From Escherichia phage JM10, in sequence record PP400777: a stretch of DNA of 64,000 bases. One strand, 5' to 3'. The translations under genes were made by a program, and so were the position numbers. A model generated the notes under the pieces. That model saw only the letters and a program-made list of their open reading frames with translations. It was not told where the DNA came from and ran no database searches. This document shows, in pieces, positions 6,491-51,470 of the stretch. Numbering within the stretch: the stretch's first letter is position 1; each line of letters starts with the position of its first letter.

Positions 6491-6718
6491 TCATTCTATT
6501 TCCTTTGCTGCAAATAAGGCAGCATCCAACGAATCAAATTGGTCAACAAAATCAATATTTAACGCATCGTCAACCGTAGCATATAACCACCATTGTTTGA
6601 ATTCATATTCAAGAATAAATCCAGGACCTTCAATCTGAGGAAGACCTAGGCTATTTGTACCAACTTCGTAACCAGCTAGACGCAGGTCATTAATCAAAGT
6701 TTCTGTTAATACGCTCAT
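6491..6718 (-). CDS. hypothetical protein
   Basis: 75-aa ORF, acidic. Confidence 0.45.
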   Translation of the reverse strand: MSVLTETLINDLRLAGYEVGTNSLGLPQIEGPGFILEYEFKQWWLYATVDDALNIDFVDQFDSLDAALFAAKEIE

Positions 6719-7047
6719 TTTGCCGCCTTAACAATTTTCAGGTCAACGAATTTTTTCTTACGCTGATTTTTCATACGACGGATAGTCTTTTCAGAGATTT
6801 CATGTTTCTGATAAGCTTTAGATTCAACACCAAATGCAGCAACGTCAAATTCAGAAAGAATATATTGTACTAGAATTTCGCGAATAGAATTACGTCCAAT
6901 TTTCTGGTCGTGTTTTTGCATGATTTCATAAAGACGGAATTCCCACGCGTCAAGAACTTGAGGAGTAACAATATTGCCGGATTCCAGAAGAGCAACAACT
7001 TTATCGAAAGCGAAAGAATTAACTACGTTTTTGATTTTAGTAGACAT
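6715..7047 (-). CDS. hypothetical protein
   Basis: Start moved to the internal ATG (MSTKIKNV) preceded by GAGGAAAATAAT; the annotated first ATG lies inside the promoter -10 element. Confidence 0.5.
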   Translation of the reverse strand: MSTKIKNVVNSFAFDKVVALLESGNIVTPQVLDAWEFRLYEIMQKHDQKIGRNSIREILVQYILSEFDVAAFGVESKAYQKHEISEKTIRRMKNQRKKKFVDLKIVKAAK

Positions 7048-7075
7048 ATTATTTTCCTCGGTTATTTTATTATCC

Positions 7076-7114
7076 AATGAGAGCATTATACTCTGCTCTC
7101 AAGAGTTTGTAAAT
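7076..7114 (-). promoter_or_regulatory. early promoter candidate with flanking inverted repeat (PeSL-like); duplicate copy at 35062-35100
   Basis: Minus strand gaTTTACAaactcttGAGAGCAgag TATAAT GCTCTCattgg; 45-bp near-identical copy at 35053-35100. Confidence 0.5.
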
Positions 7115-7116
7115 CG

Positions 7117-7329
7117 TTATCCGAACTTTTTAGCGCCTTTCCAGCCTTCGTACATAACTGCACAAGTCAGTAGTACAGCGTGCTGGCATTCTTTGTATTT
7201 GTAAATCCAGAACCAGCGTAAGAAGTCTTCATCCTCAACACCGTTGAGTTTCATATTGGCAAAGAATTCGGCACGTTCTTCACGAAGCTTTTGCGATAAC
7301 ATAGATTCAGGATTCATTTTGTGTTCCAC
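7117..7329 (-). CDS. hypothetical protein
   Basis: 70-aa ORF. Confidence 0.45.
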   Translation of the reverse strand: MEHKMNPESMLSQKLREERAEFFANMKLNGVEDEDFLRWFWIYKYKECQHAVLLTCAVMYEGWKGAKKFG

Positions 7330-8983: not shown

Positions 8984-9454
8984 TTAATCATGTTTCCACA
9001 CCCCATCAGTATTTGACCAAAGTCGCTGATTATCTGATCCTCGCCACAGCTTTTTAGTCGGAAGATTTTTCTCATACTTCCCATCAATAATAACATCAAC
9101 ATATTTAAGCATTTCTAGTTGTTTAATATCTTCAAACTTATATCCTGTCCACAACCAAATGCTTTTATTTGGATAAAGATTTTTAATAGTTTGAACCACA
9201 GAGTGAATCACATCTCTGTTATCAGGATAGAGAGGGTCACCTCCGGTTATAGTCAATCCTTCTATATAATCATTATTCAAACATTCAATTAATTGTTCTA
9301 GTGTTTCACCAGTGAATGGAATACCATTTCTAGCATTCCATGTTGATTTATTATAACACCCTTCGCATTTATGCAAACAACCTGTGACGAAAAGAACGAC
9401 CCTGCAACCAGGGCCATTCACAAAATCGCAAGGATAAAATCTATCATAATTCAT
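8984..9454 (-). CDS. nrdG: anaerobic ribonucleotide reductase activating protein NrdG (radical SAM)
   Basis: 156 aa; radical-SAM cysteine cluster CLHKCEGCYN. Confidence 0.9.
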   Translation of the reverse strand: MNYDRFYPCDFVNGPGCRVVLFVTGCLHKCEGCYNKSTWNARNGIPFTGETLEQLIECLNNDYIEGLTITGGDPLYPDNRDVIHSVVQTIKNLYPNKSIWLWTGYKFEDIKQLEMLKYVDVIIDGKYEKNLPTKKLWRGSDNQRLWSNTDGVWKHD

Positions 9455-10730
9455 TGGTGTTTAACCCTATGCATGATTTCTTTATTTTTACCAAGATTAA
9501 ATCCGCGTTCGTTCGGATTTCCCAAATAACCGCATGTTCTTCTTATGGTGTTCATCTTTTTAGGATCACTTTCTCCACAAACTGAACAAACAAATCCGTT
9601 TTCAGTAGGAGTCATTTCATGGGTACTTCCACATGTAAAACATTTATCTACTGGCATATTAACACCAAAATAATCTAAATGTTGTGCAGCATAATCCCAG
9701 ACAGCCTCAAGTCCCTTTAAATTGTTTTTCATATCTGGAAGTTCAACATAAGAAATGTGACCACCTGTCGCAATGAAATGATATGGCGCTTCACGAGAAA
9801 TCTTTTCAAACGGAGTAATATTTTCTTCTACTGAAACATGGAAACTGTTAGTGTACCAGCCTTTATCGGTGACATCCTTTACACTTCCATATTTTTCTGT
9901 ATCAAGTTTACAGAAGCGATAACAAAGGTTTTCAGCAGGAGTAGAATATAAACTAAAAGCAAATCCAGTTCTTTCAGACCACTGTTTAAGATGAGCATTC
10001 ATTTTAGTTAAAATTTCTTGTCCAATATCACGACCGACAAGAATATTCAATTCGTGAATACCGATGTATCCCAAAGACACTGAACTTCTACCGTTTTTAA
10101 ATAACTCAATTATGTCGTCATCAGGTTTAAGACGAACCCCGAATGCACCTTCTTGGTAAAGAATAGGAGCTACAGTTGCTTTAACACCCTTTAAAGAACT
10201 AATTCTACACATCAAGGCTTCAAAACACAGATCCATTCGTTCATTAAATAGCTCAACAAATTTCTGTTCATTGAACTGTGTTCCAATATAAGAATCTAAC
10301 GCAATACGAGGAAGATTCAATGTTACAACACCAAGATTATTACGTCCGTCAAGAATTTCATTTCCAGTTGAATCTTTCCATACACTCAAGAAACTACGAC
10401 AGCCCATTGGAGAAACTGGAACTGAAGAACCAGTAATAGCTTTATTATTCTTAGCTGAAATAATATCAGGATACATCCTTTTGCTTGCGCACTCTAAAGC
10501 AAGTTGCTTAATGTCGTAATTCGGATCGTCTTTATAAAGATTAACGCCTTCTTCAACGAACATAACAAGCTTAGGGAAAATAGGAGTTATCCCATCACGT
10601 CCAAGACCTTTAATACGATTTTTCAGAATTGCTTTCTGAATCATTCGTTCGGTCCAGTCAGTTCCCGTACCAAATGTAATTGTTACAAAAGGAGTCTGTC
10701 CGTTTGAACTGAAAAGTGTATTTACTTCAT
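9451..10730 (-). CDS. nrdD: anaerobic ribonucleoside-triphosphate reductase NrdD, exon 2 (C-terminal part)
   Basis: Ends with glycyl-radical motif RRTCGYLG; joined to exon 1 (11776..12313) it gives a 605-aa product reading …DAFQAYE-Y-EVNTLFSSNGQ…. Confidence 0.85.
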
Positions 10731-11775
10731 CATTATATTCAGCATGAGTCGCAAATTCATGCCCGTTTATATGAAACAACAAAATTTGGATAGTCCATAG
10801 ATATGCAACGTTCTTTTATAGTGCTAGGATGAAAATTTAGCGCTTTAGCTGCTTCTATATAAGACGTATACTTAATACCGTCAACAACCACATATTCAGG
10901 AACTTTATGAATAGTAGTCTTAATACTCAAAACAAGAGGATGAGTTTCGACTTCACTTTCAGTGCAATTTAAATATTCCGCTGCTTTTTTAAAACTTCTA
11001 AAAGTTTTATTTTTAAGCTTTATCGATACTTGTTTTTTACTTTTTCGACTATTGATATTATTTTGCACATGTTCCTTAGATCTTCCGTTTTTAGCATAAT
11101 ATTCAGCTACAGAAGATTTTATATTGTTTTTATGAGATTCGGATAACACTTTACCCTTATGAGCATCTCTTAATTTTTGAATATGTTCTTCAGTATCCGG
11201 ATGCTTATAAAACTTTTTACCGCCTATGGATTTATTTAAACATTTTTTGCTATAAAAATATTTACGTATGACCTCTTCTTCATGTTTTAATGCATCTTTA
11301 TAACTATCAAATGTTTTTAAAATTATCCATTTAGTAGGTGTATCAGTTTTTAAGCGTTCATTTATATACTTAGATGACGTTGTGTAAGTTTTCCAGTTTG
11401 TGGGCTTGTTTTTAATTGTTCTAAATTTTTTATAACCGATATAAATGTCGCCATTAGAAAACTTAACTAAGTATGTAAATGCGTCTTTATCTTTTATTTT
11501 AGTACAACGTCTTTTTATCCATTTCATTGTTTCACCTCGTATTCATAAGATAATCTTATTTATACAAGATGACTGCTGCATGTCGCCATGCAGATTAGAC
11601 TATATCTTCATCTTTCGATGCCGGCCGTTTCGAATAGCATTAGCTTCTATTCTACACCGCTACATTCATCACGGTTAGTCGTTAGGCATTTAGTTCAAAA
11701 GAACATTTAGCACGGGATTGTCTACTAGAGAGGTTCCCCGTTTAGACCGGTTTTACATGAGCCTGAATTAAATTA
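10731..11775 (-). mobile_element. group I self-splicing intron in nrdD carrying a homing endonuclease ORF
   Basis: Conserved group I core on the minus strand (TCTAAACGGGGAACCTCTCTAGTAGACAATCCCGTGCTAAAT, AAATGCCTAACGACTA); P1 pairing of exon UAUGAGU with IGS GCUCAUG gives U-G at the 5' splice site; intron ends …GAATATAATG. Confidence 0.8.
10757..11527 (-). CDS. intron-encoded GIY-YIG homing endonuclease (I-TevII-like)
   Basis: 256 aa; GIY-YIG-like N-terminus (YLVKFSNGDIYIGY), NUMOD3-like basic repeats, I-TevI-like C-terminal DNA-binding module. Confidence 0.8.
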   Translation of the reverse strand: MKWIKRRCTKIKDKDAFTYLVKFSNGDIYIGYKKFRTIKNKPTNWKTYTTSSKYINERLKTDTPTKWIILKTFDSYKDALKHEEEVIRKYFYSKKCLNKSIGGKKFYKHPDTEEHIQKLRDAHKGKVLSESHKNNIKSSVAEYYAKNGRSKEHVQNNINSRKSKKQVSIKLKNKTFRSFKKAAEYLNCTESEVETHPLVLSIKTTIHKVPEYVVVDGIKYTSYIEAAKALNFHPSTIKERCISMDYPNFVVSYKRA

Positions 11776-12313
11776 ACTCATACGCCTGGAATGCATCGTA
11801 TACATCTTTTTCTGTTTTAGATTGAGCATAATTCAACGCATCAGCGATTTGCCATTTTTCTGCATCCTCAATATGTTTTGCATAGGTGCGTTTAACATAA
11901 GGAGAAAGAACTTTATCTACATTCGCAAATGTAGTTCCGCCATACTGGTGTGAAGCAACTTGTGCGGTAATTTGTGCCATAATTGCAGTAGCAACACCAA
12001 TAGATTTAGGCGTTTCAATTTGAGCATTGCCTAATTTAAATCCATTCTCAAGCATCCCCTTTAAATCGACTAAACAGCAATTGGTAAACGGAAGAGCAGG
12101 AGAATAATCAATATCATGCATGTGAATGATTCCACTTTCATGCGCATTCATAATAAAAGACGGGACCATATTTTTGGCAATGTGCTTAGACACAATACCA
12201 GCCATAAGGTCCCGTTGAGTTGGAAAAACACGAGAATCTTTATTAGCATTCTCGTTTAAAAGATCTTTATTAGTTTTATGAATCAGTCCTTCAATTTCTT
12301 TTTCAATTTTCAT
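11776..12313 (-). CDS. nrdD: anaerobic ribonucleoside-triphosphate reductase NrdD, exon 1 (N-terminal part)
   Basis: N-terminal 179 codons; the in-frame stop at 11768 lies in the intron just past the 5' splice site. Confidence 0.85.
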
Positions 12314-12783: not shown

Positions 12784-12822
12784 GATAAACCCTTACCTTA
12801 AATAGATAAGGGTATTTATAAT

Positions 12823-12993
12823 TTAGTAAACGTTATAAAAGTTACGATGAGAACGTTTAGCTTTGCGAAGCTGACGTTTAGTAGGACGAACTGTAAATGG
12901 TTGTCCAGAGAAAAAATTCGGATCGGTTTTAATAAGCAAATACCAATCATGCTTGCCATTTTTTAATAAACGGTACAATAATTTAACTTGCAT
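12823..12993 (-). CDS. hypothetical small basic protein
   Basis: Start at the internal ATG preceded by GGAAGAG; the ORF-track start is TTG. Confidence 0.35.
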   Translation of the reverse strand: MQVKLLYRLLKNGKHDWYLLIKTDPNFFSGQPFTVRPTKRQLRKAKRSHRNFYNVY

Positions 12994-15378: not shown

Positions 15379-15435
15379 AATATTTTCCTCTCGTTAAGAT
15401 AGAAAGATTATACTCCAACCATCCTTGGTTGTACA

Positions 15436-17037: not shown

Positions 17038-17077
17038 TTGATAGGTCTATAATAACATAACCGTAGACCTTGTAAAC
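17038..17077 (-). promoter_or_regulatory. PeSL-like early promoter + stem-loop cassette
   Basis: Minus strand GTTTAC-17-TATTAT with inverted repeat AGGTCTA/TAGACCT, then GGAGG RBS. Confidence 0.45.
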
Positions 17078-21423: not shown

Positions 21424-21466
21424 TTGGTAGGACTACTATAACATAGTCCTACCAAGTTGTAAACTA
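21424..21466 (-). promoter_or_regulatory. PeSL-like early promoter + stem-loop cassette
   Basis: Minus strand GTTTAC-17-TTATAGT with 10-bp inverted repeat GGTAGGACTA/TAGTCCTACC. Confidence 0.45.
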
Positions 21467-21914: not shown

Positions 21915-21924
21915 GATAGATGCC

Positions 21925-21951
21925 AAAAAGCCCCAACCTTTCGGAAGGGGC
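21925..21951 (-). terminator. rho-independent terminator
   Basis: Minus strand GCCCCTTCCGAAAGGTTGGGGC followed by TTTTT; downstream of rI; identical hairpin at 36551-36572. Confidence 0.6.
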
Positions 21952-21958
21952 TAGTAAA

Positions 21959-34386: not shown

Positions 34387-34435
34387 GTTAACTCCTTTAT
34401 TATCCAAAAGGAGGACCGGAGTCCTCCGTATTATT

Positions 34436-35029
34436 TTATTTCAAAGAGTTAATATATTCTTGTACATCAGCAGAAGTGGTTTCTACACCAGCTGGAGTGC
34501 CATTGAACGTTTCAACACGAGTCAGAGTGTCTTCGATATCAACCTTAGTCAGTGCAGCGATTTCAATTACATCATCAGCCGTAGAGATACCAAGGGCATT
34601 GGCTGCTCGAGTTTCACGAATGTATTCGAGTTTGATTGCCAGGTTCTGACGAGCATCGTCAAGTTCAACCACCTTACGAGCAATTTCAATTCGCATAGCG
34701 GCATACCCATCAGCTTTTGTATTAAGTTGTTCGGCAGTTCTACGATACAGAAGACCAAGCTTAGCATGCATGGTAACATCTTGTCCTTCAGCCAGGAGCT
34801 TACGAATTTCACGTTCCTTAGAAGCGGCTTGCTTGTTCTTTTCATTAACAAGTTCGCGAATACGTTTTTCTTCATTAATAGATTTAACAGAAGCCGTTTT
34901 TAGTTCTTTGATTTGGGTAATCAACTTATCTGCAGCTGCGTTATACTGTTCTTCGACAGTCAGATTTTTAGCCATAGCAGTACCAAGTTTAGTGCGGATG
35001 AATTCGACAAGTTTCTTCAGTGTGTTCAT
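34436..35029 (-). CDS. coiled-coil protein
   Basis: 197 aa from the ATG with AAAGGT RBS; heptad-rich; shares its promoter/5'UTR with the gene at 6715..7047. Confidence 0.55.
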
Positions 35030-35061
35030 ATTATTACCTTTCAATTGGTGGTTTATTATCC

Positions 35062-35100
35062 AACGAGAGCATTATACTCTGCTCTCAAGAGTTTGTAAAT
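35062..35100 (-). promoter_or_regulatory. early promoter candidate, duplicate of 7076-7114
   Basis: 45 bp with 1 mismatch to 7065-7110: TTTACA-17-TATAAT with inverted repeat GAGAGCA/TGCTCTC. Confidence 0.5.
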
Positions 35101-35327
35101 TATTTTTTAATCAAATTGACATAAAACTTGGCGTCTTCGGGGTGCATGCCTTCGCAGTATTCTTCAACCATGAACTTCTTAACAGCTTCATAAGGACCAC
35201 TCAGATTAAGCTCAGTTGTCCAGAACTTGGAATCTTGGACTGAATCGATACGAACTTCAGGGTGTCGGTTGCGAATAACTTCTTCGGTGTATTCATAATC
35301 AACGACATCAATACTAACTTTAGCCAT
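35100..35327 (-). CDS. hypothetical acidic protein
   Basis: 75-aa ORF. Confidence 0.5.
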   Translation of the reverse strand: MAKVSIDVVDYEYTEEVIRNRHPEVRIDSVQDSKFWTTELNLSGPYEAVKKFMVEEYCEGMHPEDAKFYVNLIKK

Positions 35328-35342: not shown

Positions 35343-35388
35343 TTTTGATAGGACTACTATAACATAAACTTACTTAGATGTAAATTAT
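35343..35388 (-). promoter_or_regulatory. PeSL-like early promoter + stem-loop cassette
   Basis: Minus strand ATTTAC-17-TTATAGTAGTCCTATCAA. Confidence 0.4.
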
Positions 35389-35538
35389 TTCAACGTCACC
35401 TTTAGCTGCTTTATAACCTTCGGCCCAAGATACAACAGAGTTTTTATCTGAGGATTCAAATTCAGGCATTGGACTTTCACCAATATTCACACAGTATGTT
35501 TCTTCATTTTCATCGAACCAAATAATTAAAGTAGTCAT
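35374..35538 (-). CDS. candidate small protein (54 aa)
   Basis: Not in the ORF track (under 60 aa); AGGAG RBS; PeSL-like promoter upstream. Confidence 0.35.
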   Translation of the reverse strand: MTTLIIWFDENEETYCVNIGESPMPEFESSDKNSVVSWAEGYKAAKGDVEIIYI

Positions 35539-35969: not shown

Positions 35970-36002
35970 AACTTTATGAAATATTTTTATGCCCTAGATA
36001 CC

Positions 36003-36029
36003 AAAAAGCCCCAACCATAAGGAAGGGGC
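36003..36029 (-). terminator. rho-independent terminator
   Basis: Minus strand GCCCCTTCCTTATGGTTGGGGC followed by TTTTT. Confidence 0.55.
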
Positions 36030-36035
36030 ATTCTA

Positions 36036-36500: not shown

Positions 36501-36545
36501 GTTGCTTTTCCTAAGTTAATTAACTTATCTATTTATTATTATGCC

Positions 36546-36572
36546 AAAAAGCCCCAACCTTTCGGAAGGGGC
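36546..36572 (-). terminator. rho-independent terminator downstream of the tRNA/stable-RNA cluster
   Basis: Same hairpin as 21930-21951, followed by TTTTT on the minus strand. Confidence 0.6.
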
Positions 36573-36614
36573 TATATACCTTGTCGGGGTTCCACCTGCT
36601 AAGGCAAGTGTTTG

Positions 36615-36880: not shown

Positions 36881-36957
36881 TGGTCGAGGCAGAAGGATTC
36901 TAACCTTCAACCTACGGATTAGAAATCCGTTGCTCTATACAATTGAGCTATGCCTCG
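36881..36957 (-). tRNA. tRNA-Arg (anticodon UCU)
   Basis: Cloverleaf read by eye: acceptor CGAGGCA/TGCCTCG, D stem GCTC/GAGC, anticodon loop TTTCTAA, T arm GAAGG-TTAGAAT-CCTTC, CCA encoded. Confidence 0.8.
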
Positions 36958-36963
36958 AATATA

Positions 36964-37037
36964 TGACCCAGACCAGATTCGAACTGGTAACCTTTCCCTT
37001 ATGAGGGGACTGCTGCTAACCATTGAGCTACAGGGCC
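36964..37037 (-). tRNA. tRNA-Ile2/Met-like (anticodon CAU)
   Basis: Acceptor GGCCCTG/CTGGGTC, anticodon loop CTCATAA, T arm ACCAG-TTCGAAT-CTGGT; the D stem is imperfect as read. Confidence 0.6.
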
Positions 37038-38718: not shown

Positions 38719-38760
38719 TTGATAGGATGATAGTAACACACCATCATCCTTATGTAAACT
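38719..38760 (-). promoter_or_regulatory. PeSL-like early promoter + stem-loop cassette
   Basis: Minus strand GTTTAC-17-TTACTAT with inverted repeat GGATGAT/ATCATCC, then AGGAAA RBS. Confidence 0.45.
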
Positions 38761-45404: not shown

Positions 45405-47378
45405 ATGGCAAACACTCCTGTAAATTATCAATTAACCCGAACAGCGAATGCTATTCCCGAGATTTTTATCGGGGGCACATTTGCCGAAATCAAACAGAAC
45501 ATTATCGAATGGCTTAATGGGCAGAATGAATTTCTTGATTATGATTTTGAAGGTTCACGCTTAAACGTATTGTGTGACCTTTTAGCATATAACACTCTTT
45601 ACATCCAACAGTTCAGTAATAGTGCAGTGTATGAAAGTTTTATGCGCACTGCAAACTTGCGTAGTTCTGTTGTACAAGCGGCTCAAGATAACGGATATCT
45701 ACCTTCATCTAAATCAGCAGCACAAACAGAAATTATGCTCACATGTACGGATGCATTAAATAGAAACTACATCACCATTCCACGTGGCACTCGTTTCTTA
45801 GCATACGCTAAAGATACTTCTGTTAACCCGTATAACTTTGTTTCTACCGAAGATGTCATTGTAGTTAAAGACAAAAATAACCAATATTTTCCACGTCTTC
45901 GATTAGCTCAGGGTCGTATTGTTCGCACTGAATTAACATTTGATAGATTAAAACCTATCATTATTCGTGATAAGAATATTGACCGTAATTTGGTTAAGTT
46001 GTATGTTGACGGAGCAGAATGGATTAACTGGACTCGTAAGTCGATGGTTCACGCTGGTTCTACGTCAACAATCTATTATATGCGTGAAACAGTTGATGGG
46101 AACACCGAATTTTATTTTGGTGAAGGCGAAATCTCTATTAACACATCAGAAGGTGCGTTAACATCTAACTATATTGGTGGTCTTAAACCTGTTCAGGGTT
46201 CTAAAATCGTAATTGAGTATATTTCTACTAATGGCGCAGATGCTAACGGTGCTGTAGGATTTTCTTATGCTGATACATTAGCTAATATCACGGTAATCGA
46301 TATTAACGAGAACCCTAGCAATAACCCAGACTTTGTTGGGGCTGACGGTGGCGGTGACCCTGAAGATATTGAACGTATCCGCGAATTAGGCACAATTAAA
46401 CGCGAAACTCAACAACGTTGTGTAACCGCTTCCGACTATGACACATTCGTCTCTGAGCGGTTTGGTTCTATTATTCAAGCGGTTCAAACATTCACAGATT
46501 CATCTAAACCAGGGTACGCATATATTGCTGCTAAGCCTAAATCCGGATTGTATTTGACTTCTGTCCAACGCGATGATATCAAAAACTATTTGAATGATTA
46601 TAACTTAGGGACTATTACACCTGTTGTTATTTCGCCTGATTATTTGTTTATCAAAATGAATATCAAAGTTACATACGCGTTGAATAAACTCCAAGAATCA
46701 GAACAATATCTTGAAGGGCAAATTATTAATAAAATTGACCGATATTATATTGAAGATGTAGAAATTTTTAACTCATCGTTTGCAAAATCTAAAATGCTAA
46801 CTTATGTCGATGATGCAGATATTTCTATTATTGGTTCTTCAGCTACCATTCAAATGGTTCGCGAAGTACAAAACTTCTATAAAACGCCTGAGGCCGGTAT
46901 TAAATACAATAATCAGATTAAAGATAGATCGATGGAATCTAATATATTCTCGTTTGATTCGCACAGACCTAATCCAGAAAATGCAAACGAAACTATTAAA
47001 TACGGTGTTCGCATAGTATCTTCTGACCGTAATGACCGTGGCATAGGTCAAGTTATTATTGGTCCATTTGCGGACGGTGATGTTGTTGAAAACGAAAATA
47101 TACAACCTTATACAGGTAATGATTTTAATAAACTTACTGTTACTGACGGACGAAACAAATATTATTCAATTGGTGAAGTGAATTATCCTGCCGATTCGAT
47201 TTATTGGAACATTGCTAAAATTGACCTCACTTCAGACCGTTTTGAAGTTCAAACAATTGAACTTTATTCCGACCCTGCAGATGATATTATTTTTACAAAG
47301 GATGGTTCTTTAATCGTATTCGAAAATGACTTACGTCCTCAGTACTTAACTATAGATTTGGAGCCTATTTCACAATGA
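45405..47378 (+). CDS. 6: baseplate wedge subunit gp6
   Basis: 657 aa from MANTPVNYQL…. Confidence 0.9.
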   Translation: MANTPVNYQLTRTANAIPEIFIGGTFAEIKQNIIEWLNGQNEFLDYDFEGSRLNVLCDLLAYNTLYIQQFSNSAVYESFMRTANLRSSVVQAAQDNGYLPSSKSAAQTEIMLTCTDALNRNYITIPRGTRFLAYAKDTSVNPYNFVSTEDVIVVKDKNNQYFPRLRLAQGRIVRTELTFDRLKPIIIRDKNIDRNLVKLYVDGAEWINWTRKSMVHAGSTSTIYYMRETVDGNTEFYFGEGEISINTSEGALTSNYIGGLKPVQGSKIVIEYISTNGADANGAVGFSYADTLANITVIDINENPSNNPDFVGADGGGDPEDIERIRELGTIKRETQQRCVTASDYDTFVSERFGSIIQAVQTFTDSSKPGYAYIAAKPKSGLYLTSVQRDDIKNYLNDYNLGTITPVVISPDYLFIKMNIKVTYALNKLQESEQYLEGQIINKIDRYYIEDVEIFNSSFAKSKMLTYVDDADISIIGSSATIQMVREVQNFYKTPEAGIKYNNQIKDRSMESNIFSFDSHRPNPENANETIKYGVRIVSSDRNDRGIGQVIIGPFADGDVVENENIQPYTGNDFNKLTVTDGRNKYYSIGEVNYPADSIYWNIAKIDLTSDRFEVQTIELYSDPADDIIFTKDGSLIVFENDLRPQYLTIDLEPISQ

Positions 47379-50300
47379 CAGTAAAAGCGCCAGCAGTCAC
47401 AAGTCTCAGAATATCCAAGTTGTCCGCTAACCAAGTTCAAATACGCTGGGATGACGTTGGTGCTAATTTCTACTATTTCGTAGAAATCGCTGAGACTAAA
47501 ACGGCAGACGGGGAAATAATTCCCCCTGCCAACTACAGATGGATAAATTTAGGATATACTCCTAATAGCAACTGGTTCGAAAGTAGCTTAGACCCATTAA
47601 CTTCTTATATTATTCGTGTATCAACTGCAGCCGAAGGCTTCGAGAGATCTGATTGGGTATATACCGAAATATTTGAATCATTTCAGACTAACGCGTATAC
47701 ATTTCAACATATGATTGAAATGCAATTGGCTAACACTTTTATTAGAGAAAAATTTACAAATAATAACATGGCTTATGTCGATTTTAATAACGACACTATA
47801 ATGGCAGCTCTAATGAATGAATCATTCCAATTTAGCCCTGCTTATGCGGATATTTCATCTATTAAAAATTTCATTATTGGCGAAAATGAGTATCATGAAA
47901 TTCAAGGTTCGATTCAACAGGTGTGTCATGATATAAACCGTGTTTATTTGATGGAATCCGAAGGAATTCTTTATTTGTTTGAACGGTATCAGCCTGTGGT
48001 TAAAGTCTCTAATGATAAGGGACAAACCTGGAAATCGGTTAAATTGTTTAATGACCGTGTAGGGTATCCTGTATCAAGAACAGTGTATTACCAGACAGAT
48101 TACACCACGTATGTTCTTGGGTATGATAAATTATTTTACGGTCGTAAATCAACAGACGTTCGATGGTCTGCTGATGATGTGAGATTTAGTTCCCAAGATA
48201 TAACATTTGCTAAAATTGGCGACCAATTAAATTTAGGATTTGATGTAGAAATATTTGGTAACTATGCATCATTACCTGCTAACGTATCACGTATTGCAGA
48301 AGCTATCGTTTGCAATGACGATTATGTATATGTCGCTGCTCGAGATAAAGTTCGTTTTATTAAAACTAGTAATGCCCCTATTGATTCAGACCCGTTATCT
48401 CCGACATATTCCGAACGTTTGTTTGAACAAGAAACATTTAACATCACAGGTAACCCTAAGGCAGTTTGCTATAAAATGGATTCTGTCGGTGGTAAAATAT
48501 TTGCACTGATTATCGGTGAAGTTGTTAATCTTAATGACGACCCGAGGACCACTCCTATTGTTGATTCTGCTGATAAGGGTGTTTATGTTCTAGACCATGA
48601 TGCTGGCACATTTAAACGTGTGTTTGGTAATACTGAAGAAGAACGCCGTCGTATTGAACCTGGGTACACCAGTATGTCTACTGATGGTGTTGAGTTATCT
48701 ATTTCATCTAGTAATTTTAAATTTCTAGAATCAGATATTGTTGATGACCAAAAAACACAAGTCAAGTACGGTTTAACTGGTGCTGTTAAATATGAGTATC
48801 CTCGCGAATGGTTGGCTGATAAACATTATCATATGATGGCATTTATTTCAACTGAAGACTCTCAATGGGAATCGTTCACTCCTCAACCGATGGAATACTA
48901 TGCTGAGCCATTCTTTAGTTATTCTAGAAAGTCTGGTACTCGATGTTGGATTAATAACTCAGACAAGGCCGTTGTAATTTATTCTGATTTACTTTACACT
49001 AAGGTTATTGAGAATCATCCACTTAGTTCTTCAGACCGTGAAGTTCATGAATATTGGAAGGACGGTGACTGTACAATAGTGATGCCTAACGTAGATTTCA
49101 CCGGATTTAAAAAATATGCATCCGGCATGATTTTCTATAAATCGTCAGGTGAGATTATTTCTTATTATGATTTTAGTTATCGTGTTAGAGATAATGTTTC
49201 TATAATTTGGAAGCCTACTAATATATTCTTAACAGCATCGTTACAAAACCAAGAAAAAGATACCACATGGACTCCTGTAGAAGAGAACGGTATTGCAGAC
49301 CCAGATTTACGTCCATTGCTCACTACAATGATGCCGGAGTCTTATCTTTTAGATAATACAAACTTCGAAGCATTCTGCGAGGCTTATATTCAGTATCTTT
49401 CTGATGGTTATGGGACCCATTATAATAACCTTTTGAATCTTATTAAAAATCAATATCCGCGAGAAGAACATGCGTGGGAATATTTATGGTCCGAGATTTA
49501 TAAACGAAACATTTACTTAAACGCCGAAAAACGCGATTTAGTGTCTCGTTTCTTTGAATCAAGAAGTTATGACTTCTATTCAACTAAAGGAACTGAAGCA
49601 TCATATAAATTCTTGTTTAAAGTGCTTTATAACGAAGATGTTGAAATTGAAATTGAATCTAGTTCCGGGACCGAATATGATATCATCATTGAATCTGATT
49701 CGTTGACAGAAGATTTGGTCGGACAAACCATATACACCGCTACAGGACGTTGTAATGTGACGTATATCGAGAGAAGTTACTCTAAAGGTAAATTACAATG
49801 GACTGTAACAATTCACAACCTCTTAGGTCGTTTAATCCAAGGACAGGAAGTTAAAGCTGAAAGACTCCCGGGTTTTGAAGGTGAAATTGTTCGTGGTATT
49901 AAAGGTAAAGAGCTTTCTCAGAACAACATCGATTACATAAATCGTGGTAGAGCATACTACGTAATGAAGATTAAATCTAAACTTCCATCATCTCGTTGGA
50001 AATCAGACGTATTACGTTTTGTTCATCCGGTTGGATTTGGATTTATCGCAATTACCCTTCTCACAATGTTTATTAACACCGGATTAACACTTAAACATGT
50101 TGAAACCATTATTAATAAATACAAAAACTATAAGTGGGATTCTGGATTACCGACTAAATATGCAGGCCGAGTGGCTAAATTAGACCCACAAGGAAATGTT
50201 GAGTTTGACCCTATTACAGGTAAAGCGATATATGAAATAGGCCCTATGGCTGGTCAAGATTATCCATTGCCTGAAGATTATAACGCTGAAAACAATAACT

Positions 50301-50473
50301 CCATATTTCAAGGTCAACTTCCATCGGAACGACGTAAACTGATGAGCCCATTATTTGATGCGTCCGGAACAACATTCTCTAGATTTAGAGATTTGGTTGA
50401 ACAACGGTTAATCGATAATGTAGGAAATCCAAGAGACCCCGTGAATCCACCACAGGTTAAATTAGATGAATGA
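47375..50473 (+). CDS. 7: baseplate wedge initiator gp7
   Basis: 1032 aa, the same length as T4 gp7. Confidence 0.9.
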   Translation: MTVKAPAVTSLRISKLSANQVQIRWDDVGANFYYFVEIAETKTADGEIIPPANYRWINLGYTPNSNWFESSLDPLTSYIIRVSTAAEGFERSDWVYTEIFESFQTNAYTFQHMIEMQLANTFIREKFTNNNMAYVDFNNDTIMAALMNESFQFSPAYADISSIKNFIIGENEYHEIQGSIQQVCHDINRVYLMESEGILYLFERYQPVVKVSNDKGQTWKSVKLFNDRVGYPVSRTVYYQTDYTTYVLGYDKLFYGRKSTDVRWSADDVRFSSQDITFAKIGDQLNLGFDVEIFGNYASLPANVSRIAEAIVCNDDYVYVAARDKVRFIKTSNAPIDSDPLSPTYSERLFEQETFNITGNPKAVCYKMDSVGGKIFALIIGEVVNLNDDPRTTPIVDSADKGVYVLDHDAGTFKRVFGNTEEERRRIEPGYTSMSTDGVELSISSSNFKFLESDIVDDQKTQVKYGLTGAVKYEYPREWLADKHYHMMAFISTEDSQWESFTPQPMEYYAEPFFSYSRKSGTRCWINNSDKAVVIYSDLLYTKVIENHPLSSSDREVHEYWKDGDCTIVMPNVDFTGFKKYASGMIFYKSSGEIISYYDFSYRVRDNVSIIWKPTNIFLTASLQNQEKDTTWTPVEENGIADPDLRPLLTTMMPESYLLDNTNFEAFCEAYIQYLSDGYGTHYNNLLNLIKNQYPREEHAWEYLWSEIYKRNIYLNAEKRDLVSRFFESRSYDFYSTKGTEASYKFLFKVLYNEDVEIEIESSSGTEYDIIIESDSLTEDLVGQTIYTATGRCNVTYIERSYSKGKLQWTVTIHNLLGRLIQGQEVKAERLPGFEGEIVRGIKGKELSQNNIDYINRGRAYYVMKIKSKLPSSRWKSDVLRFVHPVGFGFIAITLLTMFINTGLTLKHVETIINKYKNYKWDSGLPTKYAGRVAKLDPQGNVEFDPITGKAIYEIGPMAGQDYPLPEDYNAENNNSIFQGQLPSERRKLMSPLFDASGTTFSRFRDLVEQRLIDNVGNPRDPVNPPQVKLDE

Positions 50474-51470
50474 TTCAAGTGTTATCTATCGTGCAATAGT
50501 TACATCAAAATTTAGAACAGAGAAAATGCTGAATTTTTACAATTCAGTTGGGGATGGAGATGATAAGAACTCCATTTATATTACGTTTGGACGTTCAGAG
50601 CCTTGGGCGTCAAATGAAAATGAGGTGGGCTTCGCCCCACCTTATCCTACAGATTCTGTTCTTGGTGTTACTGATATGTGGACCCATATGATGGGTACCG
50701 TTAAAGTTTTACCTTCAATGTTAGATTCTGTTATTCCTAGACGTGATTGGGGAGATGTGCGATATCCAGACCCTTACACGTTTAGAATTAACGATATAGT
50801 CGCATGTAATACTGCTCCGTACAACGCGACAGAAGTTGGAGCTGGTTGGTTAATTTACCGTTGTTTAGATGTCCCTGACGTAGGGCTCTGTTCAATAGAA
50901 TCTTTAGATAATAAAGATGAATGTCTTAAATTGGGTGGTAAATGGACTCCATCTGTTCGTTCTATGTCTCCTCCTGAAGGCAGAGGCGATGCTAATGGGG
51001 TTATCGAAACCGGTGATGGATATATTTGGGAATATCTTTATGAGATTCCTGCCGATGTGTCAATTAACCGTTGCACTAATGAATATCTTGTAGTTCCATG
51101 GCCGGAAGAAATTAAAGAAGACCCCACCCGTTGGGGATATGAAAATAACTTAACTTGGCAACAAGATGACTACGGTTTGATTTACCGTGTTAAAGCTAAT
51201 ACGATGCGGTTTAAAGCATATTTTGATTCTGTTTATTTCCCTGAGGCAGCTTTGCCTGGTAACAAGGGTTTTAGACAGATATCAATTATCGCAAACCCGT
51301 TAGAAGCTAAGAAAAATCCAAATGACCCTAATGTTAAAGCAGAAAAGGATTATTACGACCCTAGAGATCTGCAACGTCATTCTGGTGAAATGATTTATAT
51401 GGAAAACCGACCACCTGTTATTATGGCAATGGACCAAACAGAAGAAATTAACATTTTGTTTATGTTTTAA
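50466..51470 (+). CDS. 8: baseplate wedge subunit gp8
   Basis: 334 aa, as in T4. Confidence 0.9.
   Translation: MNDSSVIYRAIVTSKFRTEKMLNFYNSVGDGDDKNSIYITFGRSEPWASNENEVGFAPPYPTDSVLGVTDMWTHMMGTVKVLPSMLDSVIPRRDWGDVRYPDPYTFRINDIVACNTAPYNATEVGAGWLIYRCLDVPDVGLCSIESLDNKDECLKLGGKWTPSVRSMSPPEGRGDANGVIETGDGYIWEYLYEIPADVSINRCTNEYLVVPWPEEIKEDPTRWGYENNLTWQQDDYGLIYRVKANTMRFKAYFDSVYFPEAALPGNKGFRQISIIANPLEAKKNPNDPNVKAEKDYYDPRDLQRHSGEMIYMENRPPVIMAMDQTEEINILFMF

Follow-up and report, generated by a model that had tools for sequence, protein, structure and literature searches.

Why two short stretches of DNA lying 28 kb apart in the genome of a T4-like phage, each in front of a different gene, should be nearly identical is the question raised by a 64,000-nucleotide stretch of Escherichia phage JM10 (PP400777), the whole of which is referred to here as the window. 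The original prediction held that positions 7065-7110 and 35053-35100 are the same save for one base; our analyses confirmed this and placed the true limits slightly wider. Alignment, pattern search, a repeat finder (which filed the pair as family D12, 98%), and an ungapped scan agreed on two 49-nt direct repeats on the minus strand, copy A at 7066-7114 and copy B at 35052-35100, identical at 48 of 49 positions and 27,986 bp apart. The sole mismatch is at 7078 (T on the plus strand, A on the minus strand) versus 35064 (C and G, respectively), and outside the 49 nt the similarity ends sharply on either side in the alignment. With up to three mismatches allowed, the 35-nt core occurred at exactly two places in the window, on one strand, and had no match in 100 dinucleotide shuffles. 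The ungapped 49-mer scan found no third copy in the window at a score of at least 31/49; other scores of 29 to 30/49 were only palindromic self-matches of A and B on the opposite strand, and the remaining early promoters of the window all fell under the 29/49 reporting threshold. The reading we favor, with a probability of about 0.8, is that each copy is a cassette of the PeSL type, in which a strong host-sigma-70 early promoter is fused to a stem-loop spanning the -10 box. Cassettes of this kind have already been described (Arbiol et al. 2010; Comeau et al. 2014), and A and B are a clean Mosigvirus example of them and no surprise.

The window is 97 to 98% identical to the Mosigvirus coliphages (the RB69/JS09/PhAPEC2 group of T4-like phages) and collinear with PhAPEC2 from 34.8 to 100.7 kb. 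According to the annotations of PhAPEC2 and RB69, copy A lies between homologs of T4 55.3 (7117-7317) and 55.2 (6715-7047; 110 aa, PHROG 1475), and copy B lies between an Frd.3-like gene (35100-35327) and a homolog of T4 e.6 (34436-35029; 197 aa, PHROG 1203), all four genes being on the minus strand. At each site the cassette occupies the whole space between two small early genes, from the first one's stop codon to the ribosome-binding site (RBS) of the second. The products of the 55.2-like and e.6-like genes belong to different PHROGs and gave no BLASTP alignment with each other; the repeat, the promoter match described below, and this gene comparison together support the claim that a promoter and the start of a leader are duplicated directly 5' of genes with unrelated products. 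The T4 gene 55.2 encodes a topoisomerase I inhibitor and belongs to the early transcripts (PMC4396842), in keeping with an early promoter ahead of the 55.2-like gene.

An Rfam search of the whole window at the gathering threshold returned nothing at either site and only two tRNAs (36884-37037, minus strand); three tRNA genes are annotated at the corresponding place in PhAPEC2, and the region aligns at only 80%. Identity to PhAPEC2 is just 80 to 86% across 38673-58878, by collinearity the ipI-to-baseplate/neck region, against 95 to 97% in the flanking blocks, so that, compared with its nearest relatives, the genome is a mosaic. The nrdD gene is in two open reading frames (ORFs) (9451-10782 and 11768-12313), split by an insertion of ~1 kb that PhAPEC2 does not have; it carries a 256-aa ORF (10757-11527, minus strand) with a GIY-YIG-like motif (GDIYIGY), likely a homing endonuclease, and no group I intron was found in it at the Rfam gathering score. 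The pin gene for a Lon protease inhibitor (PhAPEC2 46869-47282) is apparently absent from the window, where an alignment gap at 12819-12834 stands against PhAPEC2 46869-47295.

The minus-strand sequence of each copy is a-TTTACA-AACTCTTGAGAGCAGAG-TATAAT-GCTCTC-(A/G)-TTGGATAATAAA. TTTACA-N17-TATAAT matches the sigma-70 consensus at 11 of 12 positions and is the best or joint-best match in each region, with the -35 box at 7108-7113 and the -10 box at 7085-7090 in copy A and at 35094-35099 and 35071-35076, respectively, in copy B. The stop codon of the upstream gene is 3 nt from the -35 box in A and 0 nt from it in B, where the TAA of the Frd.3-like gene lies directly against the hexamer. Neither site has a TGn extended -10, and an UP-like A-tract upstream of the -35 box is clear only at site B (ttgattaaaaaataa), the corresponding sequence at site A (aaaaagttcggataacga) being just partly AT-rich. 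From this layout, A and B are predicted to be sigma-70 early promoters of the T4 type. They resemble the T4 early promoters reviewed by Hinton (2010; PMC2988021) in their near-consensus hexamers, 17-nt spacer, extra conserved positions (conservation in T4 early promoters extends well beyond the -35 and -10 hexamers), and association with immediate-early genes. The "uber" T4 early promoter of that review combines excellent -35 and -10 boxes with a TGn extended -10 and an UP element; of these, A and B both have the boxes, neither has the TGn, and only B has a clear UP-like tract.

Spacing from the -10 box puts the predicted transcription start 7 nt downstream, at 7078 (A) in copy A and at 35064 (G) in copy B, and this predicted start base is the only position at which the copies differ. 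GCTCTC lies between the -10 box and the expected start; the earlier idea that both 5' untranslated regions begin with GCTCTC is therefore probably wrong, the leaders most likely opening with (A/G)UUGGAUAAUAAA, that is, (A/G)TTGGATAATAAA in the repeat, and GCUCUC probably lying upstream of the transcript. The copies part 12 nt past the polymorphic base, and a Shine-Dalgarno sequence (SD) and ATG follow 19 to 25 nt beyond the repeat. The 12-mer TTGGATAATAAA has one further exact match, at 34396-34407 (minus strand), after the e.6 terminator and running into the SD of e.5, so that e.6 and its terminator are flanked by a 12-mer direct repeat. The window holds three exact and two one-mismatch matches to this 12-mer, against 1.4 expected by chance; the repeat around e.6 is possibly the scar of a cassette insertion.

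An 8-bp inverted repeat, TGAGAGCA/TGCTCTCA, brackets the -10 box in both copies. In copy A the hairpin occupies 7078-7101 (minus strand), with arms at 7101-7094 and 7085-7078 and an 8-nt loop, GAGTATAA, that contains most of the -10 hexamer; in copy B (35064-35087, minus strand) the arms are the same except that the A-to-G difference at 35064 makes the outermost pair U.G. Four of the eight pairs are G-C. The core hairpin has a folding energy of -11.9 kcal/mol (z = -4.3), and none of 200 shuffles was as stable. Transcripts from the predicted start would not include the 5' arm, and the whole hairpin would thus be present only in read-through RNA from 55.3 or Frd.3. An intrinsic (Rho-independent) terminator was considered and not accepted: the hairpin is followed by AUUGGAUAAUAAA, with no U-run, and a terminator scan of both strands did not call it at either site and did call the e.6 terminator at 34410-34427. 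Strong intrinsic termination is for these reasons doubtful here, unlike at the GC-rich PeSL of RB49.

The promoters of T4 e, soc, 49, and I-TevI also lie inside a hairpin of which only read-through RNA has both arms; there, the promoter is a late one and the 3' arm masks the RBS. A and B have the promoter inside the hairpin in the same way, but theirs is early and the 3' arm is clear of the SD, ending ~20 to 25 nt before it, which makes translational masking unlikely and led us to reject it for this pair. Three other early promoters on the minus strand (25150, 27969, and 21912) have a spacer that, just past the -35 box, is complementary to the SD region of their own gene (TCTCCTCTAGTTG...CAACTAGAGGAGA and TTCCTCCAAG...CTTGGAGGAA are examples), an arrangement like that of e, soc, and 49 but at early promoters; here, read-through RNA would mask the RBS and promoter-proximal RNA would not.

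Relatives of the element are widespread. By blastn, 755 phage records matched, with three or four places in many Mosigvirus records and one in T4-like phages. PhAPEC2 has four members, before 55.2, e.6, ndd, and an ORF of the pseT region: the 55.2 and e.6 copies are identical to each other at 49 of 49 positions, the ndd copy has a TGTACA -35 box and the same stem, and the fourth, before an RB69ORF231c-like gene beside pseT.1, has the stem GGGAGC/GCTCCT. The single copy of a T4-like phage precedes a motB-like gene, has the stem GGGACC/GGTCCT, and is 84% identical over 50 nt. RB69 and mar005p1 carry a variant at site A with a TATACA -35 box and a stem, GAGAGA/TCTCTC, that is again compensatory. 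IMG/VR contigs of ~170.5 kb carrying family copies are presumably of the JS98 group; taken together, the T4-like and these inferred JS98-like phages have copies before the motB-like gene, 55.2, and ndd.

The copies of a given genome are not equally alike in all groups. The stems of the 55.2, ndd, and motB copies differ in JS98-like contigs (GGGACC, GGGGTC, and GGGGCC), whereas in Mosigvirus the stem GAGAGC is common to the 55.2, e.6, and ndd copies. The contrast suggests that copies have been homogenized in the Mosigvirus lineage, perhaps by gene conversion; strong purifying selection on the ancestral sequence could also account for the near-identity of A and B. Strict concerted evolution as a universal rule was rejected, as sites A and B differ from each other at 4 to 7 positions in mar005p1 and RB69.

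The variation among relatives also tells what is conserved in the stem. IMG/VR was scanned with the pattern AACTCT-N7-AGAGTATAAT, in which neither arm is fixed and which replaced an earlier pattern with a fixed inner stem that had found only 10 loci; matches that also had a T[TG]TACA -35 box were taken as family members. The 16 distinct family sequences found in this way have 6 to 7 of the 7 arm positions paired, compared with a mean of 2.46 of 7 in 28 nonfamily matches to the same fixed motif. When 17 variants were aligned, 97.8% of cells were paired, with compensatory changes at five of the eight pairs (G-C to C-G, G-C to A-U, C-G to A-U, and others). In 500 shuffles the observed pairing score was never reached, and moving the partner by 1 to 3 columns reduced pairing to 35 to 54%. 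The family shows no variation in the spacer AACTCT or the loop AGAGTATAAT. The stem is thus under selection for pairing and not for sequence. On the sense strand, the 17 variants have 15 G.U cells against 2 C.A cells, an imbalance that favors folding of the sense strand, as RNA or as nontemplate DNA.

Stems over the -10 box are not confined to this family. A looser scan of the window found ~26 early-type promoters on the minus strand that are followed by an SD and ATG; they lie within 1-39 kb, nearly all of them between 7 and 39 kb, and 46% of these 26 promoters have a hairpin of -6 kcal/mol or lower over the -10 box, compared with 18.5% of random windows (Mann-Whitney p = 0.0013). Many have stems over the -10 box that are unrelated to those of A and B, at 21463, 30995, 32291, and 38383 (TAGGACTAT/GTAGTCCTA), at 38758 (AGGATGATGGTG/TACTATCATCCT), and at 17076 (AGGTCTA/TAGACCT). 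The number of such promoters also qualifies the proposal that the repeat implies coregulation of its two genes: a common promoter does imply the same expression class (immediate-early, host sigma-70), but with ~26 early-type promoters on the same strand such coregulation does not set the pair apart. A 34-nt GC-rich terminator hairpin of the form GCCCC...GGGGC followed by a T-run, on the minus strand, occurs at 21920-21953 and, 100% identical and 14.6 kb away, at 36541-36574, with an 82% match at 35998-36031; the one at 21920 lies directly upstream of an early promoter's -35 box, as in classic PeSLs whose stem-loop precedes the promoter.

Three other views of the -10 stem were weighed against the PeSL reading. 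That the stem might be more than a passive attenuator is suggested by compensatory changes across the T4, RB69, and apparently JS98 groups and by the restriction of G.U pairs to the sense strand; it might then be a single-strand structure that controls the promoter or an RNA tag on read-through transcripts, and we consider this unlikely. As an example, a cruciform or nontemplate hairpin in injected, supercoiled DNA could present the TATAAT loop to sigma-70; alternatively, a structure-specific factor could recognize the stem and contribute to the unexplained shut-off of T4 early promoters, or, as another possibility, an RNA tag could give read-through transcripts a fate different from that of promoter-proximal ones. 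We see very little likelihood that the palindrome is an operator at which a dimeric phage or host protein switches a subfamily of promoters (55.2, e.6, ndd, and others) together. The inverted repeat does overlap the -10 box and the start site, the classic operator position, the same repeat stands at four genes in Mosigvirus genomes, and the mechanism of early-promoter shut-off in T4 is unsettled (PMC2988021), but selection for pairing rather than for sequence argues against a site for a sequence-specific protein. The arms vary among relatives (GAGAGC, GGGAGC, GGGACC, GGGGTC, and GAGAGA) while compensatory changes keep them paired, which is the signature of a folded strand; G.U pairs are found on one strand only; and other early promoters in the window have unrelated stems at the same position. 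It is just as hard to credit that the element is simply a very strong promoter, kept by its contacts with RNA polymerase, in which the inverted repeat is incidental and without function. The conservation of T4 early promoters well past the hexamers (PMC2988021) and the invariant spacer and loop of the family would suit such a view, but at five of the eight stem pairs both partners have changed with complementarity kept, the shuffled and slid controls are far below the observed pairing, and nonfamily matches to the fixed motif do not have the complementarity.

The PeSL reading also fits what has happened to neighboring genes. RB69 and mar005p1 have an extra gene, ORF075c, between 55.3 and 55.2 that the window does not have, and ORF075c comes with its own promoter and stem-loop (TGTACAA-cgATAGGGAAGAcatgt-TATTAT-CTTCCTAT). 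The window aligns to RB69 on either side of the ~297-nt ORF075c segment and switches on the common T(T/G/A)TACAA of the site A -35 box, so that an indel of a small gene is bounded, at base-pair resolution, by the -35 hexamer of the cassette; such a breakpoint is the outcome predicted for recombination between two neighboring PeSLs. In 400 nt at site A, 6 of the 12 mismatches between the window and mar005p1 fall inside the 49-nt element (p = 0.0013), and site B of the window is identical to that of RB69 at 49 of 49 positions, from which the site A cassette looks like an exchanged patch; the ungapped comparison of the window with RB69 in the 55.2 gene was used only up to ~177 nt, where the frames shift. 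Among JS98-like IMG/VR contigs, one combination of upstream gene and promoter leads into three different genes; in one IMG/VR contig the e.6 promoter is preceded by a different gene, and in another an ndd.1-like gene lies between two family copies spaced 412 nt apart. Contigs L006/L007 and L008 encode, downstream of the same promoter copy, proteins of 160 and 153 aa whose C-terminal halves are almost identical and whose N-terminal halves are unrelated, which points to one recombination endpoint inside the gene and the other at the promoter.

Compared with PhAPEC2, indels of ~1 kb and ~0.2 kb, at 15407-15433 and 35356-35532, are likewise bounded by overlapping promoter sequence. At the first, which stands against PhAPEC2 49895-50889, a ~1-kb RB69p097-like gene of PhAPEC2 is missing from the window, and the two alignment blocks share 27 nt located exactly at the early promoter at 15435. 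At the second, ~250 nt upstream of site B, the PhAPEC2 blocks overlap by 37 nt of promoter-like sequence, and the window has a 54-aa ORF (35374-35538) with none in PhAPEC2, apparently the counterpart of the 54-aa RB69ORF145c, which is at the equivalent position in RB69. The notion of a recombination hotspot accordingly stands for local events of a few hundred base pairs, whose breakpoints the elements mark, and not for events of 28 kb.

Inversion of the 28 kb between the copies, as had been proposed, is impossible, because the pattern search shows A and B to be in direct orientation. A deletion is unsupported: the interval holds nrdD/G, 49 (endonuclease VII), nrdC, rI, tk, vs, regB, denV, e (lysozyme), nudE, and small genes (49, e, and ~70 others in all), packaging and lysis in T4 depend on genes 49 and e, and a T4 genome, being packaged by the headful, can neither lose 28 kb with essential genes nor gain 28 kb. 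When two synthetic 449-nt chimeras representing the deletion-type and duplication-type A x B junctions were compared with 50,697 phage records, no record matched at least 80% of either query at a single place. That the pair is an active hotspot deleting, duplicating, or inverting the interval is thus largely refuted for viable genomes and finds next to no credence with us, even though the near-perfect homology, at 49 bp, comes near the length reported to suffice for recombination in T4 (Singer et al. 1982, as cited in a passage of PMC2839356) and recombination between PeSLs has been demonstrated, according to the same source, for neighboring elements.

In the passages of Arbiol et al. (2010; PMC2839356) that we draw on, a PeSL runs from the upstream stop codon, in AT-rich sequence, via sigma-70 -35 and -10 boxes to the SD and ATG; its stem-loop is mostly between the boxes or overlaps the -10 box, G-T pairs are noted, and five subclasses are distinguished. 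PeSLs are described there as concentrated in hyperplastic regions and as recombining into mini-circles, with promoter activity shown and terminator activity shown for one GC-rich stem. The corresponding passages of Comeau et al. (2014; PMC4122927) report PeSLs in PST/T4 with the promoter TTTACW-N17-TAYWAT and AT-richer stems. A and B have a sigma-70 promoter with ~17-nt spacing, a stable stem-loop over the -10 box, a span from stop codon to SD and ATG, and repetition among small genes beside indels; judged by such sequence-level features, they would pass as PeSLs in every respect except a clear AT-rich tract at site A. As far as those passages of the two papers go, they are like PeSLs in being intergenic stop-to-ATG cassettes with a stem-loop on the -10 box that includes G-T pairs, in being repeated, and in marking indel breakpoints. 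Within the same passages, PeSLs are formally described for RB49/phi1, PST/T4, and nt-1/KVP40 and not for the RB69/PhAPEC2 group; the polyG/polyC stems of RB49 PeSLs were shown to terminate, whereas the stem of A and B is short and mixed with no U-run; and PeSLs flank one ORF, whereas A and B are 28 kb apart. A passage of PMC2839356 discusses comparable early-promoter/stem-loop repeats from T-even phages (Repoila et al. 1994), which are T4-type early promoters with weaker, AT-richer stem-loops and proposed targets of gene shuffling; on that account they flank the internal-protein (IP) loci, while A and B are at the 55.2 and e.6 loci. The term "inverted repeat" has no occurrence in the review of T4 early promoters by Hinton (2010; PMC2988021).

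Under the PeSL reading, E. coli RNA polymerase would start, just after infection, at the A or G 7 nt past the -10 box, giving immediate-early transcription of the 55.2-like gene from site A and of the e.6-like gene from site B, in transcripts without the 5' arm. Read-through transcripts would hold both arms and might fold, directly past the stop codon of the upstream gene, into a hairpin of about -12 kcal/mol, probably an attenuator, a pause site, or a stabilizer of the 3' end that would insulate neighboring gene modules from each other. As a ~50-bp sequence that recurs in the genome and in related phages, the cassette might also serve as portable homology, which the T4 recombination machinery could use to insert, delete, and swap the small genes it flanks and to homogenize copies by gene conversion; the last would explain an identity of 48/49 at a distance of 28 kb.

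By themselves, cassettes A and B open no new question, and they add a well-documented Mosigvirus example to the PeSL concept. For annotators, they offer an explanation of 50-bp repeats that are nearly identical yet lie tens of kilobases from each other in T4-like genomes: these are regulatory cassettes and neither assembly errors nor the ends of mobile elements. The most useful by-products of the analysis are the base-level indel breakpoint at the -35 box and the covariation of the -10 stem, the latter from an unbiased test, new with respect to the passages of PMC2839356 and PMC4122927 considered here, in which the stem is under selection in three groups of T4-like phages.
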